58,303 bases of DNA from Candidatus Hermodarchaeota archaeon (GCA_016839365.1 JAEOUH010000074.1:1-58303); one strand, 5' to 3'. Shown: positions 2,040-9,634, counted from the stretch's first letter. Program-made: numbers and translations. Notes: generated from the sequence alone by a model not told the origin.

Positions 2040-2630
2040 ATGACTGAATTTCGTGTTCCCTCGCCCAAAGAACTCCAAGAATTAAGAAAGCAAGTCGGAT
2101 TAACCCAATCTGAGCTAGCGGAACGCGTCGGGATAAGCCAATCCTTAGTAGCACGCATTGAAAAGGGTCAAGTAAATCCAAGTGTCAGTACACTCAAACG
2201 TATTCTCAACGTCATCGAAGAACACAAACACACTCATTCTTCTCTCAGTGATTTATTGAAGTGGAAAGGACAATCAAAGCTTAACCCATTGATCTGGGTA
2301 GGACCAGAAGATTCAGTTCGACGGGCTGTGATTCTCATGCGACGTCATGGGATTTCACAGTTACCTGTGATCAAACGAAACAAAGCAATAGGATCTATAA
2401 GCGAGGGAACAATTATCAAACAGCTTATGGTCATGGATTCGCAGAAAGTATTCAGTCTTTCTGTTCAGGAAATCATGGAACCTCCTTTTCCCACAATAGA
2501 CATTAGAGATAAAGTGGAAACAGCCTTTTCTAAAATTGCGGCGGGGGATGAAGCTGTCTTAGTATTAGATGAAGACAGGCCAATTGGAATAATTACAAAA
2601 ATCGACGTTATTGCCTTTACAAAGCCATAA
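2040..2630 (+). CDS. XRE-type HTH + CBS-pair transcriptional regulator
   Basis: N-terminal LRKQVGLTQSELAERVGISQSLVARIEKG HTH followed by two CBS repeats (GISQLPV, GIITKID). Confidence 0.9.
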   Translation: MTEFRVPSPKELQELRKQVGLTQSELAERVGISQSLVARIEKGQVNPSVSTLKRILNVIEEHKHTHSSLSDLLKWKGQSKLNPLIWVGPEDSVRRAVILMRRHGISQLPVIKRNKAIGSISEGTIIKQLMVMDSQKVFSLSVQEIMEPPFPTIDIRDKVETAFSKIAAGDEAVLVLDEDRPIGIITKIDVIAFTKP

Positions 2631-2646
2631 AATTATGAGAAAAATC

Positions 2647-2670
2647 AATAATTTCATTGAATTCATTAGA
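2647..2670. repeat. Palindromic motif copy 1 (AATAAT-TTCATTGA-AT-TCATTAGA)
   Basis: Intergenic, upstream of the AAA ATPase; right half imperfect. Confidence 0.75.
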
Positions 2671-2741
2671 ACCAATCAGTTTTTTATCTTAAATACAATC
2701 AATAATTTTTTATTACTGGAACCCATTCTCTATCAACATTC

Positions 2742-4061
2742 TTGGATGTGTTTAGTCTGAGTGAACTTGATCGATTAGTAGAGCAAACACACAAATTTGA
2801 TCAGCAGATGCTAGCTAAATGGGGTTTCAAAACCGAACGGATTGAGCTTTTTGGAATAGATTCACCGGATTTGTACGTTGTTCCTGAGGAGGAGGCTTTG
2901 GCAATCAAAAGGGCAGTCAATTATCTTCGTAATCAGACCGCAAGCGTCGTTGTGTCTGGCCCCCTAGGTGCTGGAAAGACTACCTTCTTGGAGATGATTC
3001 AAGAGTCATTGAATCGCTTACCGAATATCCGTGCCATTCGTCTTGAAGGAGTCAGTTCAGCCGACGCACTGATTGACGATCTTCTCCATGCGAATATAAG
3101 AGAACAAACCGTTCGGGATTTCTTAATTGATAAAGTAGGAATCCGTGTAGTAAGAAGCGGTTCCATTGCCAAACGGCTCTCGCGCCTCTTATTAGGCCTG
3201 CGAACAGATGCGGAAGAGAATGGAACCTCGTATGTCTTGTTAATCGACGAATTTCGCCAGCTAGAACGTCAACGGCCAGACAATCGTGTACGTATCGTTG
3301 ACACCCTTCTTCGTATGGTCAATGATAAGACCAGAGATGGTCGCCGATACCTAGTACTAGCTCTAGCCATCATTACACGTGTTGGGGAAAGTGCGGTAAA
3401 GACACTCGAACTTCTCTCCTCAGTAGGGGAAACCTTAGGCCATGGAAGCAAGTCCGCTATTCGACGAAGGTTCGTTGAGATTTATGATATGAGGCGGATG
3501 AAAAAGAGCACTGCTCTGAAAGTACTACTTTGGAGGCTGGCCTATCTCAAAGGCTCATTGGATGATATTGGTAAGGAACCCGATGAAGGTATTAACTTCA
3601 ATTCACCCACAATCCAGAAGTTACTTGCTCCCTTCACAGGAGAGGCGTTGGAAGCAATATTCAACTATTCAGGAGGAAATCCTGGAATAATGCTCGAGCT
3701 ACTTCTCCGATGTCTTCAGGATGCAATCCGAGGTGCTGAGATTCTCATCAATGATGGGTACTCATTGGATCAAGTTTTATCAGTTTATCAAATTAATTCC
3801 GAATATGTTCAACAATTTGTCCAGAAGGAAGTAACCCGTGCGCGGGCAGAATTTACTAACTTCCAAACTGAGCTCTTAGGCTTTCTTTCTGTTCCTCGCT
3901 CACTAGACGATATTGAGTCCTGGCTCCAGAGTCAGGAACGTTCATGGGAAAGTGTGTTAGAAGATTTCGATCTATTCGAAAAGCAGGGGCTCATCTACAG
4001 TCCCGAAGCCGGTAAGATACAAGCCACTGAGCTTTGGACTAAAGGATCCACATTTGTTTGA
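2742..4061 (+). CDS. AAA+ P-loop ATPase (ExeA/AAA_22-like) with probable C-terminal winged helix
   Basis: Walker A GPLGAGKT, Walker B LLIDE, arginine-finger-like AIRRRF, YSGGNPG lid motif; N-terminus (KWGFKTERIELF) resembles ExeA-family proteins; C-terminal FEKQGLIY is wHTH-like. Confidence 0.8.
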   Translation: MDVFSLSELDRLVEQTHKFDQQMLAKWGFKTERIELFGIDSPDLYVVPEEEALAIKRAVNYLRNQTASVVVSGPLGAGKTTFLEMIQESLNRLPNIRAIRLEGVSSADALIDDLLHANIREQTVRDFLIDKVGIRVVRSGSIAKRLSRLLLGLRTDAEENGTSYVLLIDEFRQLERQRPDNRVRIVDTLLRMVNDKTRDGRRYLVLALAIITRVGESAVKTLELLSSVGETLGHGSKSAIRRRFVEIYDMRRMKKSTALKVLLWRLAYLKGSLDDIGKEPDEGINFNSPTIQKLLAPFTGEALEAIFNYSGGNPGIMLELLLRCLQDAIRGAEILINDGYSLDQVLSVYQINSEYVQQFVQKEVTRARAEFTNFQTELLGFLSVPRSLDDIESWLQSQERSWESVLEDFDLFEKQGLIYSPEAGKIQATELWTKGSTFV

Positions 4062-4072
4062 GGTGAGTGTAA

Positions 4073-4441
4073 ATGTCAGCTACAGATCTCATTAGAGAAC
4101 GGATGAAAAAGGAAAAAGAATCAAAACCGAAATCAACGAAAAAAGCCCAATCAACAGAAACTCGAGAAATTGAACTCGAAGAGCTGTCAGCTCGGGTTGG
4201 CGATTCGGGATTCAAGAGATTACGTATCGAAAGCGAGTATGAAGGGCGTCGAACTATCAGTGCAAGTGTACCCGCTTGGATTAAAGCGGCTTTAGATTTC
4301 GTATCATTGGCAGCTACAAAATCAGGACAGGGACAATATGCAGGCTTTGGTGGGAAGTCTAGGTTCATAGCTGAAGCCCTTGAAGAAAAGCTGAAGTCTG
4401 TTTTTCCTGAAGTATACAAGGAATTACAACGAGAAGGATAA
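4073..4441 (+). CDS. Ribbon-helix-helix-like DNA-binding protein with charged flexible N-terminal tail
   Basis: RTISASVP (strand), AWIKAALD (helix), GKSRFIAEALEEKL (G-x-S helix B pattern); GAGGTGA RBS; 11 bp after the ATPase stop. Confidence 0.65.
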   Translation: MSATDLIRERMKKEKESKPKSTKKAQSTETREIELEELSARVGDSGFKRLRIESEYEGRRTISASVPAWIKAALDFVSLAATKSGQGQYAGFGGKSRFIAEALEEKLKSVFPEVYKELQREG

Positions 4442-4457
4442 TCTTAACCGCGAAAAT

Positions 4458-4484
4458 AATAATTTCATTGAAGTCAATGAAATT
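4458..4484. repeat. Palindromic motif copy 2 (perfect 11-bp inverted repeat AATTTCATTGA-AG-TCAATGAAATT)
   Basis: Read directly from the 4442-4579 intergenic region. Confidence 0.9.
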
Positions 4485-4579
4485 GGTATTATTCTCTTGA
4501 TTACTATTAGTTAGCATAAATTATAAGCTTCTCTCGGATATAGGTTATCTTCATTTGGTGTTTAGGGTGGGTTTAACGG

Positions 4580-5152
4580 ATGTCGCATGATGTACGACGT
4601 GTATATGTGATCTCTTTTGATTTCAAGCAGCCGAAGGGATCGAGCCAAGCTCGAAAAACACGGTTCTTTCGAGAGTTGTATGGATATACTCAGCAAGTCA
4701 AACAGGAACTGAAGGATGGTGAAATTGTAACTCGAACGTACCACTATCCTGGGGTGCTAGACCAGATACCATATGTGAAGCTAGGGAAAAGTGTGATAGC
4801 CGTTCAGCCTGGAACTGAGGAAGCCATTCTCAAGTTACTCGATGCGTTTGATGAAGTAGTGTCTTACAGCTTCATTGGATGGCTGCCTATCTATCATTGG
4901 CCAAAAATATTGGATGAAGAGGTTAGACTTGCTACAGACCTAATTGGGGCTCTCGGGTATTATTCTATACTGTTGCAGGTTCAGAATATGGGAGGTAACA
5001 TCCAAGATTCCTCTTTACTTGATGTGGGGTTTGATATTGGGTTTATCGACAAAGCCATTGATTACCTTACCTCCAAGAAGTTACTCAACGAATCTAAAGG
5101 GACTCTCACTCTCACGACTAAAGGAAAAGAAATTTTGAATTATGTGTCCTGA
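4580..5152 (+). CDS. Hypothetical protein: Cas2/VapD-like ferredoxin-fold N-domain + C-terminal winged helix
   Basis: VYVISFD strand ending in Asp, RFFRELYGY helix, KLGKSVIAV; C-terminal AIDYLTSKKLL...LTLTTKGKEIL is a typical wHTH wing. Confidence 0.55.
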   Translation: MSHDVRRVYVISFDFKQPKGSSQARKTRFFRELYGYTQQVKQELKDGEIVTRTYHYPGVLDQIPYVKLGKSVIAVQPGTEEAILKLLDAFDEVVSYSFIGWLPIYHWPKILDEEVRLATDLIGALGYYSILLQVQNMGGNIQDSSLLDVGFDIGFIDKAIDYLTSKKLLNESKGTLTLTTKGKEILNYVS

Positions 5153-5177
5153 GTGTCCTAATACCGTAATTAGGGAG

Positions 5178-5201
5178 TTCAATGAGTTCATTGAAATTAT
5201 T
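5178..5201. repeat. Palindromic motif copy 3 (TTCAATGA-GT-TCATTGAA-ATTATT, inverted orientation)
   Basis: Lies between two convergent 3' ends. Confidence 0.85.
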
Positions 5202-5713
5202 CAGTCGGGTTTCAATGCCAATGGTTGGGCAAGGGCCTCAATGAGCTCTAGTATGCGATCTTGATTCTGTTTAAGGGTTCTTAGGTGGGTGGGGGTTGGC
5301 TTTTCGTCTTTGGTAGCGACAATGTCGTATTCACGCGCATAACTTCGAATGTCCTCTGCCAAGTCTTGGTATCGCATCAGAGAAGGTGATTCAAATAGCC
5401 CAAGATAGCCTAATAGTACCAATGTGAAAACAGATTTTGTGACGTTCCGACGTGCCTGAGCAAGTGAACGGTTAAAAGCTCCTCTACTAACACCTGTCCG
5501 TTTTTGCGTTTTGTCTTTTTGATCTCTTAGGGCTGCTTTAGTTTGGTAGTCAATGCGTTTTCCACTGAAACCGTCCAGAAGATAATCAAGTACTAAAGTT
5601 TCTAGTTGCACCTTGGACAGGTGACTTTTTTTAGCTAATAATACTGTAATTGGATCCTGTAGCATTCTACGTGCCCAAGAGCGCGTTTCCTTGGCTTCGT
5701 TTTTCTCGAGCAA
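5201..5713 (-). CDS. Archaeal hypothetical protein with HTH-like motif
   Basis: SHLSKVQLETL...GVSRGAFNRSLAQARRN resembles an HTH; likely TTG start at 5713 after GGGGT (track ORF extends to 5770). Confidence 0.65.
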   Translation of the reverse strand: MLEKNEAKETRSWARRMLQDPITVLLAKKSHLSKVQLETLVLDYLLDGFSGKRIDYQTKAALRDQKDKTQKRTGVSRGAFNRSLAQARRNVTKSVFTLVLLGYLGLFESPSLMRYQDLAEDIRSYAREYDIVATKDEKPTPTHLRTLKQNQDRILELIEALAQPLALKPD

Positions 5714-5816
5714 ATCCTTACCCCCATGGATACAGTTTTGTATACGTGACGAGCGGTTACTTAAAAACACGCTGGTGTTCTGAGCATTTTATATGCTCTC
5801 GGGAATTAACAGATTC

Positions 5817-5840
5817 AATAATTTCATTAAACTTAATGAA
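5817..5840. repeat. Palindromic motif copy 4 (AATAAT-TTCATTAA-AC-TTAATGAA)
   Basis: In the divergent promoter region between the HTH gene and xpd. Confidence 0.85.
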
Positions 5841-5913
5841 TGCCACTCGAGATTATGAAATTAAAAGGAGTTTTTTATTCTTTAAGCCTTATCAGATGAT
5901 GAGGACACGCAAT

Positions 5914-7833
5914 ATGTGTTCAAACCATACCCAACGCTATTTTCCATATACTTCTCCGCGGCCTGGTCAACTATCCCTAGTTCAAGCTATTCAAGATGAC
6001 CTCGGAGCCGGGAAACACCTGTGCGTTGAGGCTGCTAATGGCTTTGGAAAAACCATTGCTGCCCTATCCGGGGTTCTGCCACTCCATAAGAAGAAGAGCT
6101 TGGGGATCGTGTATGTTGCCAGAACTCATAAGCAATTAGATCGAGTAATGCAAGAATTACGGCTAATTACTGAATCAACTAGCTTAAACGGGGTGGTGTT
6201 ACGAGGGCGCGCTTCCACATGTTTGAATCCAATAGTTCGCAAATATGCTGCAAGTGCTCAACTTGCCATGTTTATTTGCAGTCAATTGAAACGTGCTGGA
6301 CGCTGTGAGTATTACCAAAACCTCATTAGAAAGAAGAAAATAGAACAGAATTACTTTAACAAGTTTTATCAAACGCCTCTCACAGGTTTGGAGTTTCGAA
6401 AAAAGTGTGAATCTGATAAGGTGTGCCCTTATGAACTTTCAAAACGCCTGCTACCTTTGGTAACTGTTGTGGCTACCACTTATTTTCAGATCTTTGATCC
6501 GCACATAAGTAATATGTTCTTTGAGGCCTTCGGTCATCCATTGTCTCACACAATCCTCATTTTAGATGAAGCCCACAATCTTCCTCGAATTGCCGTCGAA
6601 TTAGCGTCTGCACGCCTTTCGTTAGCATCAATAAAACAGTCAAATAAAGAGGCGAATCGCTATGACCTTTCACCAATCAAACAATTCGCACTTACTTTGG
6701 AACATAACATTCAACAATTGGCGGGTAGCTATTCAGAACAAGAGATTCGATTTGACCCAGTTGAATTTACTTCGCAACTCTGTCAAGTTCTCAAAATTAA
6801 TAATTTCAATAATTTTGTTGAAATCATGTTACAAACGGGTAGCAAGGTGCTTAACCAATTACTAAACGAAGGAAAACCTCCAATAAGCTACATCCATTCC
6901 TTGGCTCGGTTCTTCATAAATTGGTGTTACTTTCTGAAACGAAAGGATGCTGCCTTTTTCATTACCCAAAATGGACCAAATCATTCGCCTACATATCTTG
7001 AAATAGTTGCATTAGATCCGCGTATTGCAACTACTCCGATTCTGAAATCTTGTTATGCCTCGGCTCATTTATCGGGAACACTGGAACCAACAAGTGCCCA
7101 TATTGATCTAGTTGGTTTACCTAAAGAAACGGTATCTCTCAATTTACCTTCTCCCTTTACTCAGAACCAGATTTTCCCAATAATCAGCCTTGGGGTCACG
7201 ACAGCCATGAAATACAGAACGCCTCAAATGTATAAAAAAATTAATCGCCGAATCCTAGAGGTTTGTCAGGCTACACCCCATAACGTTGGCGTTTTTGTTC
7301 CCTCCTATTCAGTATTACAATCTCTTCTTGAAGCTGGTTTAGATAAAGTGTCTAATCGGGATTTATTCATTGAGAAACCGAATTTGTCTTCAAGCGAAAA
7401 CGATTCTTTAATTCAAAAGTTCAAACGCAGAGCTCATGCTGGTGCCATGCTTATTGGAGTCCTTGGCGGGCGAAATAGTGAAGGCGAGGATTATCCGGGG
7501 ATTGAGATGGAGACAGTAGTGGTTGTTGGGGTTCCCTACGCAAGGCCTACTCCCAAGGAGATGACTCGAATCGCATACTTTGAAAGCCAATTTCCTCGGA
7601 AGGGTCGGCTATACGGGTACCAACTGCCTGCACTGCGAAGCGCATCTCAGGCAGCAGGACGTTCAGTTCGAAAGCTCGAAGATAGAGGGGCGATAGTGTT
7701 TTTAGATGATCGTTATGCAACACCTCTTTGCCAACGATTACTACCTAAATGGATAAACGAAAACTTAAGGGGGTCAAACAACGCTGATGGAGTGCTTTAT
7801 ACTCACCTAAAGAACTTCTATTCGGTAACATAA
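5914..7833 (+). CDS. xpd: XPD/Rad3-family Fe-S DNA helicase
   Basis: Q motif FPYTSPRPGQ, Walker A ANGFGKT, Fe-S cysteines (CLN, C, C, CPY), DEAH, SGTL, QAAGRSVR. Start moved to ATG 5914 after GAGGA. Confidence 0.93.
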   Translation: MCSNHTQRYFPYTSPRPGQLSLVQAIQDDLGAGKHLCVEAANGFGKTIAALSGVLPLHKKKSLGIVYVARTHKQLDRVMQELRLITESTSLNGVVLRGRASTCLNPIVRKYAASAQLAMFICSQLKRAGRCEYYQNLIRKKKIEQNYFNKFYQTPLTGLEFRKKCESDKVCPYELSKRLLPLVTVVATTYFQIFDPHISNMFFEAFGHPLSHTILILDEAHNLPRIAVELASARLSLASIKQSNKEANRYDLSPIKQFALTLEHNIQQLAGSYSEQEIRFDPVEFTSQLCQVLKINNFNNFVEIMLQTGSKVLNQLLNEGKPPISYIHSLARFFINWCYFLKRKDAAFFITQNGPNHSPTYLEIVALDPRIATTPILKSCYASAHLSGTLEPTSAHIDLVGLPKETVSLNLPSPFTQNQIFPIISLGVTTAMKYRTPQMYKKINRRILEVCQATPHNVGVFVPSYSVLQSLLEAGLDKVSNRDLFIEKPNLSSSENDSLIQKFKRRAHAGAMLIGVLGGRNSEGEDYPGIEMETVVVVGVPYARPTPKEMTRIAYFESQFPRKGRLYGYQLPALRSASQAAGRSVRKLEDRGAIVFLDDRYATPLCQRLLPKWINENLRGSNNADGVLYTHLKNFYSVT

Positions 7834-7863
7834 ATCCTCTTCTATTTCATTAAAAATAACAAA

Positions 7864-7881
7864 TTCATTGAGTTTAATGAA
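7864..7881. repeat. Palindromic motif copy 5 (TTCATTGA-GT-TTAATGAA)
   Basis: Intergenic, 17 bp upstream of the radB start. Confidence 0.85.
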
Positions 7882-7898
7882 TATGTGGTGTTTCGGGC

Positions 7899-9208: not shown

Positions 9209-9634
9209 CTATCCCAACAGATTCAATTTCATCCAGATTAGCCATTGGCAACCAAAGAACGATATGAGGATAGTAACTAATCCAACTGCTAGCATCATTT
9301 GTGCATACCGTGGTCGGTAAATATTACGGGTGCTTTGGTACATTAGGTAGAAGCCTACGAATCCAAGGAAAAAGAGTGCGCCCCCGACGATTCCTTCTAT
9401 CAGCACCTGTCGATTTAGCCCAGGATACAAAGGAAGTATTCTGTCGCCAATCTCGATGAAAGGAGGTGTTTCATAGGAGAGAACAAACATTCCTCCACTT
9501 ACAACAAAATAGTAGACTACTAACACGATTGCGAATAGTATCCACTTTGAGGGTAGACGAATTTCACCAAACCTCGGTCTACGGAGTTTTAGTCGTGGTT
9601 TACGGACGAATTTTGGCCACCAAAGGTCTGACAT
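9209..9634 (-). CDS. Oligosaccharyltransferase subunit OSTC/DC2 (OST3/OST6 family) homologue
   Basis: Three TM helices; PRLKLRRP, YYFVVSGG, ETPP, NRQVLIEG, GFVGF and terminal MKL align along the whole length with eukaryotic OSTC as recalled. Confidence 0.8.
   Translation of the reverse strand: MSDLWWPKFVRKPRLKLRRPRFGEIRLPSKWILFAIVLVVYYFVVSGGMFVLSYETPPFIEIGDRILPLYPGLNRQVLIEGIVGGALFFLGFVGFYLMYQSTRNIYRPRYAQMMLAVGLVTILISFFGCQWLIWMKLNLLG

Follow-up and report, generated by a model that had tools for sequence, protein, structure and literature searches.

The DNA under study is contig C54 of a 2.2-Mb metagenome-assembled genome (MAG; G000) from Candidatus Hermodarchaeota archaeon (GCA_016839365.1, JAEOUH010000074.1). 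The contig is 58,303 nt long and constitutes the window to which coordinates refer unless another contig is named. Close to its left end lies a two-gene operon that encodes an AAA+ ATPase and a protein of 122 amino acids (aa), and an array of short palindromes is dispersed around it. The gene layout proposed in an earlier reading made from the DNA alone (the sequence-only reading) was found as described: the ATPase gene, a spacer of 11 bp, the gene for the 122-aa protein, and two further genes, p190 and p189. The components of the operon and the array are as follows:

1756-1782: site inside hypF, three tandem units in codons 59-67; same position in 5/5 stitched genomes
2644-2670, plus strand: Site 1, three units, ATCAATAAT TTCATTGAA TTCATTAGA; a conservation island in the 13-genome alignment
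2748-4061 (open reading frame, ORF, 2742-4061), plus strand: AAA+ ATPase, 437 aa, starting at a GTG (2748) that is conserved; its domains are an AAA+ base, a lid and a winged helix at the C-terminus
4073-4441, plus strand: 122-aa protein, candidate adaptor, after the 11-bp spacer
4455-4481 (core 4464-4481), plus strand: Site 2; nothing else is conserved between the 122-aa gene and p190
5178-5204, minus strand: Site 3, between the convergent stops of p190 and p189; kept in 11/12 aligned genomes
5814-5840, plus strand: Site 4, in the gap that separates the divergent genes p189 and xpd; a TATA-like box (5867-5880) follows about 25 bp downstream
6805-6822, plus strand: weak two-unit copy inside xpd, common to the closest relative only
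7846-7881 (core 7864-7881), plus strand: Site 5, 17 bp before radB

Alignment of the copies identified the repeat unit as a 9-bp palindrome, TTCAWTGAA, which occurs in two to four head-to-tail copies per site. The sequence-only reading had described a longer pattern, TTCAWTRA-NN-TYAWTGAA, in five intergenic gaps, and the dispersed array proved to be real: four exact matches are present in the window (at 4464, 5178, 5823 and 7864) versus none in 100 dinucleotide-preserving shuffles of the window, and the copy at 2653 departs from the strict pattern by two mismatches. Nor is the motif common in the rest of the genome. The strict 18-mer has four matches in the 2.2-Mb MAG, all of them in the window; MAG-wide matches to a 24-mer with up to three mismatches are confined to C54:1765-7881; and adjacent pairs of 9-bp units, each with one mismatch at most, are found five times in the MAG, always within C54:1756-7881. 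Clusters start at 1756, 2644, 4455, 5178, 5814 and 7846, and a weak one at 6805, inside xpd, may be non-functional because of its narrow distribution. Overall, the sites follow one another at intervals of 0.6-2.3 kb over about 8.5 kb, and nearly every intergenic gap is occupied.

An AATAAT flank had also been reported for four of the copies. On the plus strand it is seen at 2647, 4458 and 5817, and it recurs at 5196-5201, on the opposite side of the 5178 copy; at 7858, AACAAA stands in its place. As a separate, oriented element it was discarded, since its orientation varies among relatives, and it seems best read as a degenerate third unit.

Conservation was examined in 12 congeneric loci, and the gap alignment comprises 13 sequences. 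Orthologues of the ATPase are found in 14/14 congeneric species genomes. Motif clusters occupy the same five gaps in the 12 congeneric loci, and the hypF site is present in several of them; the motif does accompany the orthologous cassettes. In the gap alignments it forms a conserved island inside diverged spacers, including the convergent p190/p189 gap, where no promoter is possible and the site is conserved all the same. When five relatives were scanned genome-wide, nearly all motif matches fell in this locus. The site inside hypF provides an additional indication: in codons 59-67, third positions have a mean major-allele frequency of 0.85, compared with about 0.58 at flanking conserved residues, and the three Ile codons are invariably ATT. 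Because synonymous variation is nearly absent, the pattern indicates selection on the DNA itself. In the sister genus, three of four MAGs carry no Orc1 orthologue, and G016, whose contigs break inside hypF and p189, has one site in the p189/xpd gap.

The position of the array with respect to a replication origin was established through a second contig of the same MAG, C76 (locus L033). The first 127 bases of the window are identical to the end of the C76 reverse complement, and hypF, which is split between the contigs, is restored in frame by the junction; C76 and C54 are therefore neighbours. C76 contains four exact cores of the archaeal origin recognition box (ORB) within 1.5 kb, while the whole MAG has five; they lie at 576, 960 (reversed), 1156 and 2055 in an origin that extends from about 540 to 2100, and three have a G-string. 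The cores include an inverted pair around approximately 180 bp of AT-rich DNA, and in window coordinates they would fall at about -448 to -1940, left of base 1. The flanks of the origin are made of an Orc1/Cdc6 gene (2317-3552; Cdc6_C 3.9e-29, Cdc6_lid 6.9e-22), a DUF2240-like gene and the gene for the small subunit of PolD. A near-copy of the motif at C76:543-570 directly adjoins the ORB core GTTCCAGTGGAAAT, and the unit TTCAWTGAA is different from the ORB core TTCCAGTGGAAA. In four relatives with unbroken contigs the order is orc1, four ORBs, palindrome array: the array extends from the last ORB to radB, over about 8.4 kb and on one side only, as no palindrome copies were found on the orc1/PolD side in these four relatives. 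The MAG has three Orc1/Cdc6 paralogues, and ORBs are found only at the one on C76; the other two, at C47:~4400-5644 and C15:~1500-2723, lie in regions free of canonical ORB cores and of palindrome arrays.

Proximity to an origin had been contemplated in the sequence-only reading, and the array does abut one. In contrast, the proposal that the AT-rich stretch at 2631-2741 might be an unwinding element was not supported. The conserved parts of this stretch are the palindromic site and a TATA-like box, and the AT-rich ORB origin is on C76; with that ORB-flanked origin some 0.45-1.9 kb to the left of base 1, 2631-2741 is to be viewed as a promoter-containing spacer.

Two small genes accompany the origin in all lineages examined (L039, L040, L054 and L058), where they are found in or next to the ORB region: wHTH98, which encodes a TrmB/Lrs14-like protein of 98 aa (L033:644-940), and p151, an orphan of 151 aa (L033:1297-1752). 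Both products may be origin-associated factors.

The ATPase is well conserved across the genus (82-95% identity). It contains the Walker A motif GPLGAGKT, the Walker B motif LLIDEF and an invariant RRR at 239-241; in the lid, the motif GGNPG occupies the place of the usual sensor-2 arginine, a residue that ORC-type ATPases usually carry. Pfam assigns it to ATPase_2, AAA and AAA_22. Membership in ATPase_2 (PF01637), a family with no known function, is marginal: 34.9 bits against a cutoff of 33.2 (E 1.8e-8). Neither Cdc6_C (PF09079) nor Cdc6_lid gave a Pfam match at E<=0.01. The structural model (predicted local distance difference test score, pLDDT, 75.6) has its best fold match in archaeal Orc1/Cdc6, with a Foldseek E of 3e-9 and a VIA Z of 16.9 (1w5s, 268 residues aligned); Z values of 15.4-16.1 over residues ~16-437 were obtained for 2v1u, 1fnn and 2qby. 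There are near-ties with PABY2304 (2qen, Z 16.7) and TnsC (Z 16.6), eukaryotic ORC/Cdc6 and MuB tie as well, 2fna reaches Z 15.2, and RuvB is among the matches. Because the fold scores tie among Orc1/Cdc6, TnsC, PABY2304, ORC/Cdc6 and MuB, the protein is modelled as an initiator/TnsC-type AAA+ ATPase with a lid and a C-terminal winged helix, and its fold relatives are mostly DNA-bound AAA+ switches. These model matches support the three-domain Orc1/Cdc6 architecture that had been suspected. The label 'ExeA-like', given to the same gene in the sequence-only reading, is only a loose one in view of the Pfam families.

Other ATPase classes were considered and rejected. The ATPase does not group with secretion ATPases, as the match to T2SSE (E 0.0086) covers the P-loop only and no pilus genes are found nearby. 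A ParA-type or actin-like motor was discarded because of the Walker A sequence and the AAA+ families and folds. An AAA+ protein of Tn7/Mu transposition was likewise rejected: the neighbours are hypF, a helix-turn-helix (HTH) regulator with CBS domains (HTH-CBS), xpd, radB and orc1, with no transposase, and synteny is stable across the genus.

The 122-aa protein is made of three parts: an N-terminal peptide (residues 1-16) with the family consensus (S)xxDLI(K/R)ER(M/L)KKE, a variable charged linker, and a highly conserved C-domain predicted to fold as strand-helix-helix-helix, with invariant TISxSxP and GFGGKS. In the monomer model (pLDDT 54), a strand is predicted at 59-62 and helices at 68-83 and 94-110. 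On the grounds of secondary structure only, the protein may be described as ribbon-helix-helix (RHH)-like. Proteins of the RHH class bind tandem short repeats, as exemplified by MetJ (metboxes), omega (heptads) and ParR. Atlas leads for the 122-aa protein (MobC-like, CB_ParB_C and MetJ) all score <0.9. The family amounts to only 3 clusters in a set of 1.84e9 representatives. The N-terminal peptide is kept in every case in which the ATPase is present. A co-fold prediction of the ATPase with the 122-aa protein scored 0.09, below the mark, and was not used either way.

Diverged loci named Ranarchaeia by their source (L039, L040 and L041) encode homologues of the ATPase that are 53-57% identical, followed by a homologue of the small protein with 122-130 aa. 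In L039 and L040, the TTCAWTGAA unit forms 7-8 clusters that occupy nearly every gap over about 7.5 kb, and Orc1/Cdc6 and ORBs are 1-3 kb away. The numbers of unit matches are far above expectation: 15 with one mismatch at most in L040 (0.01 expected) and 17 with two mismatches at most in L039 (0.06 expected). The genes that flank the sites in the diverged lineages differ from those of the window and include alba, PF04008, POR and DUF2070; only p189, usually HTH-CBS, and p151 and wHTH98 on the origin side are common to both. The array is thus kept near the origin while the flanking genes differ, and it is therefore the position that is conserved rather than the target genes. A third lineage is represented by a contig of 689 bp (L060), which carries the 3' end of the ATPase gene, a small gene with the N-terminal peptide and three units that directly follow its stop codon.

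One genome has a different arrangement. G022 is 93% complete, and its locus (L054) lies on an unbroken contig that keeps Orc1, the ORBs, p151, p189, wHTH98, HTH-CBS and the small protein. No ATPase gene is present at the locus, and none was found elsewhere in the genome with the ATPase as query. The dispersed array is absent, only a degenerate AT-rich cluster being found before the small gene, and the small protein has lost its N-terminal peptide while its C-domain is kept. This single case links the ATPase, the N-terminal peptide and the dispersed array. The pattern also fits a small protein that would bind its own promoter. Where other genomes have the ATPase gene, G022 has a minus-strand ORF of 109 aa (oriented coordinates 7433-7762), with HTH-CBS on one side and the gene for the small protein on the other.

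The neighbouring genes and the boxes in their promoter regions are listed below:

2040-2630, plus strand: HTH-CBS, a regulator with an XRE-type HTH and a CBS pair (HTH_3 2.6e-16, CBS 2.8e-18), usually directly upstream of the ATPase gene
2692-2713, plus strand: AATACAATCAATAAT-T-rich box, present in 13/13 sequences, about 35 bp before the GTG start
4580-5152, plus strand: p190, with an N-domain of unknown type and a C-terminal winged helix (HTH_45 1.1e-4, below cutoff; PADLOC WH_III-A 1.2e-5)
5201-5713 (ORF open to 5770), minus strand: p189/p170, an HTH-like orphan with a probable TTG start at 5713
5867-5880: TATA-like T-rich box, conserved, downstream of Site 4
ATG at 5896: xpd, which appears nearly leaderless
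From 7899: radB

The box at 2692-2713 is the probable core promoter of the ATPase operon, as inferred from its conservation and location. HTH-CBS is present in L040, L041 and G022, and is not found in L039. Since p190 has been found in this genus only, being absent from L039-L041 and G022, it is placed outside the core. No family or PDB match was obtained for p189, which is a core neighbour in the diverged lineages too. Some 15-30 bp upstream of its probable start lies a conserved palindrome of another kind, GGATACA-N4-TGTATAC (5728-5745), which is probably the operator of p189 itself and unrelated to the TTCAWTGAA unit. In L019 (G014) and L026 (G011) xpd is missing and radB comes directly after Site 4, so that xpd cannot be a fixed part of the module. 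A reading of the locus as a defence system was discarded because the PADLOC matches are weak and generic only. Further to the right, a protein of 141 aa (9209-9634) matches the OST3/OST6 family (1.7e-6), consistent with an Asgard origin of the contig.

Literature searches yielded no description of a module made of this ATPase, the 122-aa protein and the array, nor of Asgard ORB origins. Partial likenesses to known systems are, however, found. SegAB-segS of the Sulfolobales is alike in being a two-gene operon with an NTPase gene followed by the gene for a small site-specific binder (PMC8682754; bioRxiv 10.1101/2025.04.15.649018), and in having short repeated or palindromic sites beside the operon; segS sites form higher-order complexes. 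SegB belongs to the RHH class, and its N-terminus, which is disordered, activates SegA; the order of fold elements in SegB (helix, strand, three helices; PMC8682754) is the order predicted for the 122-aa protein. Differences are also evident: SegA is a ParA-type Walker ATPase, while an ORC/TnsC-like AAA+ ATPase is encoded here, and the single full segS of S. acidocaldarius is located 166 kb away from an origin (PMC8682754; bioRxiv 10.1101/2025.04.15.649018), while here some eight clusters over 8.5 kb touch the ORBs.

Plasmid partition systems of types Ib and II (ParF-ParG, delta-omega, ParM-ParR) offer another parallel, with an NTPase, an RHH adaptor with a flexible tail and tandem repeats that double as operator. 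Tandem cis repeats directly before and after the operon, and in the neighbouring gaps, are what a partition cassette would have, and they are found at this locus. The plasmid systems differ in their ParA-like or actin-like motors, in having one compact centromere and in their residence on plasmids; here, a dispersed array is found at a chromosomal origin. ParB-parS near oriC is similar in that an origin-proximal domain is marked by several palindromic sites, including intragenic ones, at up to about 10 kb from the origin; ParB is, however, a CTPase clamp of the HTH type whose partners are ParA and SMC, and no ParB homologue is involved here. As for the ATPase, it shares with Orc1/Cdc6 the AAA+/lid/winged-helix fold and the location of its gene beside the origin, and differs in sequence (12-15% identity), in the Cdc6_C and Cdc6_lid signatures and ORB motif that characterize Orc1/Cdc6, and in having an operon-encoded partner. 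PF01637 members such as PABY2304 and SSO1545 resemble it in Pfam score, just above the cutoff, and in fold Z, and neither a function nor a cis array is known for them. TnsC and MuB are alike in fold, and work as DNA-bound, ATP-dependent switches whose recruitment depends on a site-specific partner; the transposase context is missing here.

The interpretation that we tentatively favour, as possible rather than probable, is that the array and the operon form an origin-proximal complex, centromere-like or organising, in which an adaptor binds the sites and an AAA+ protein acts as switch. The approximately eight clusters of tandem TTCAWTGAA would be a cis array on one side of the Orc1/Cdc6-ORB origin. 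The 122-aa protein would recognize the sequence, each 9-bp unit taking up one dimer and binding being cooperative; it would probably also repress its own operon, the nearest sites probably doubling as operator as in plasmid partition cassettes. Its N-terminal peptide would recruit or switch the ATPase, which would oligomerise on DNA with ATP, and the ATPase and the adaptor together might mark and compact origin-proximal DNA. The most likely role of such a complex would be to serve as a centromere-like handle by which origins are segregated or organised just after their replication, comparable to ParB-parS or SegB-segS with another class of motor. A bolder formulation seems doubtful to us: a ParA-less Asgard machine with an ORC-derived AAA+ ATPase, an RHH-type adaptor and a multi-site centromere at oriC, which would either segregate sister origins or load an SMC/MCM ring onto the DNA near the origin. 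The notion that this genome has no ParA was itself rejected, as the MAG contains seven AAA_31 (ParA/MinD-superfamily) matches.

Several observations weigh against a centromere-like or organising complex. Since several ParA/MinD-superfamily genes exist in the MAG, a classical motor might do the work, and we know of no AAA+ ATPase that acts as a partition motor. The RHH assignment of the 122-aa protein is tentative: its AlphaFold2 monomer model, with the pLDDT given above, is too poor for a fold search; profile searches against Pfam and PDB gave chance-level matches only, with SegB not among them; and a comparison by hhalign with three RHH_1 proteins encoded in the same MAG reached a probability of 2% and aligned helix B only. 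Alternatively, the sites could be bound by the winged helix of the ATPase, by p189 or by HTH-CBS. The family is narrow (16/400 Asgard species genomes), and the correlation provided by G022 comes from one genome. Furthermore, most sites are 25-50 bp upstream of conserved TATA-like boxes, and sites just upstream of TATA occupy the position used by archaeal activators. A conserved three-unit site is found off the locus, at C89 ~6205-6235, and also in relatives L029-L032; it is located in the divergent gap between an operon for p272 and a Ras-like GTPase and the gene for a GNAT (Rv0428c_C-type) acetyltransferase. In L039, a similar cluster precedes a gene for a Ras-like GTPase that is next to orc1. 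Such sites in promoter gaps fit a transcription factor.

These latter observations are the core of an alternative that we consider rather unlikely, namely that the palindromes define a local transcription regulon. The 122-aa protein, p189 or HTH-CBS would bind them as activator or repressor of an island of replication and repair genes, made up of the ATPase operon, p190, p189, xpd, radB and the wHTH gene on the origin side, and of the distant p272-Ras GTPase/GNAT genes, for instance in a cell-cycle or damage response, and the ATPase would be no more than one of the targets, or else a co-regulator. Most clusters do lie in gaps upstream of genes, and the TATA-like boxes come 25-50 bp after Sites 1, 2 and 4. 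A precedent also exists in aCcr1, the cell-cycle repressor of the Sulfolobales, a small RHH-type protein that recognizes a 9-bp palindromic box in promoters (PMC9976878). The distribution of the sites is, however, not that of aCcr1-like promoter operators: Site 3 is conserved between convergent stops, the site inside hypF is under constraint at the DNA level, and nearly all sites are gathered in one 8.5-kb stretch. Moreover, the neighbouring genes change between lineages, and G022 has lost the array and the ATPase together, yet all candidate HTH/RHH factors remain.

We regard as improbable that the locus is devoted to replication control, with the ORC-like ATPase acting as an auxiliary or alternative initiator, or as a loader or regulator of MCM or Orc1, and the small protein as its specificity factor; the system might then license, time or restrain origin firing, for instance by titration or sequestration. 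Archaeal Orc1/Cdc6 and eukaryotic ORC/Cdc6 are indeed the best folds over the AAA+, lid and winged-helix domains, the operon is 1-5 kb from Orc1/Cdc6 and ORBs in every contiguous lineage examined, and the first palindrome cluster directly abuts an ORB. Nevertheless, the fold scores tie with TnsC and PABY2304 and the Cdc6 signatures are absent from the ATPase; the sites are spread over 8.5 kb, unlike compact ORB pairs around an AT-rich element; and the origin already has canonical ORBs and a bona fide Orc1/Cdc6, which G022 keeps without the ATPase. Finally, a neutral or selfish short repeat, such as a remnant of a mobile element or AT-rich low-complexity DNA found beside the operon by chance, is very hard to reconcile with the data: the units are AT-rich, as is the intergenic DNA around the array (64-77% AT), but 4-17 matches were observed against 0-0.06 expected, the unit is kept across lineages whose ATPases are about 55% identical, positions are conserved while the flanks within gaps diverge, and neither a transposase nor any repeat beyond the 18-36 bp clusters is found at the array.

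To our knowledge, the organisation and segregation of archaeal chromosomes, especially in Asgard archaea, are largely unknown, and SegAB, with its ParA-type ATPase, is the only studied system; we know of no case in which the ORC/TnsC branch of AAA+ ATPases has been implicated in partition. The reach of the present finding is limited to one genus and a few diverged lineages. The locus supplies a clearly delimited Asgard origin, with four ORBs, Orc1/Cdc6 and PolD. It also represents a compact and testable alternative to SegAB, since the 9-bp unit and the place next to oriC are defined and the genes are two in number and small. If the bolder formulation given above were true, AAA+ proteins of the initiator clade would make up a fourth class of motors for chromosome partition or organisation.

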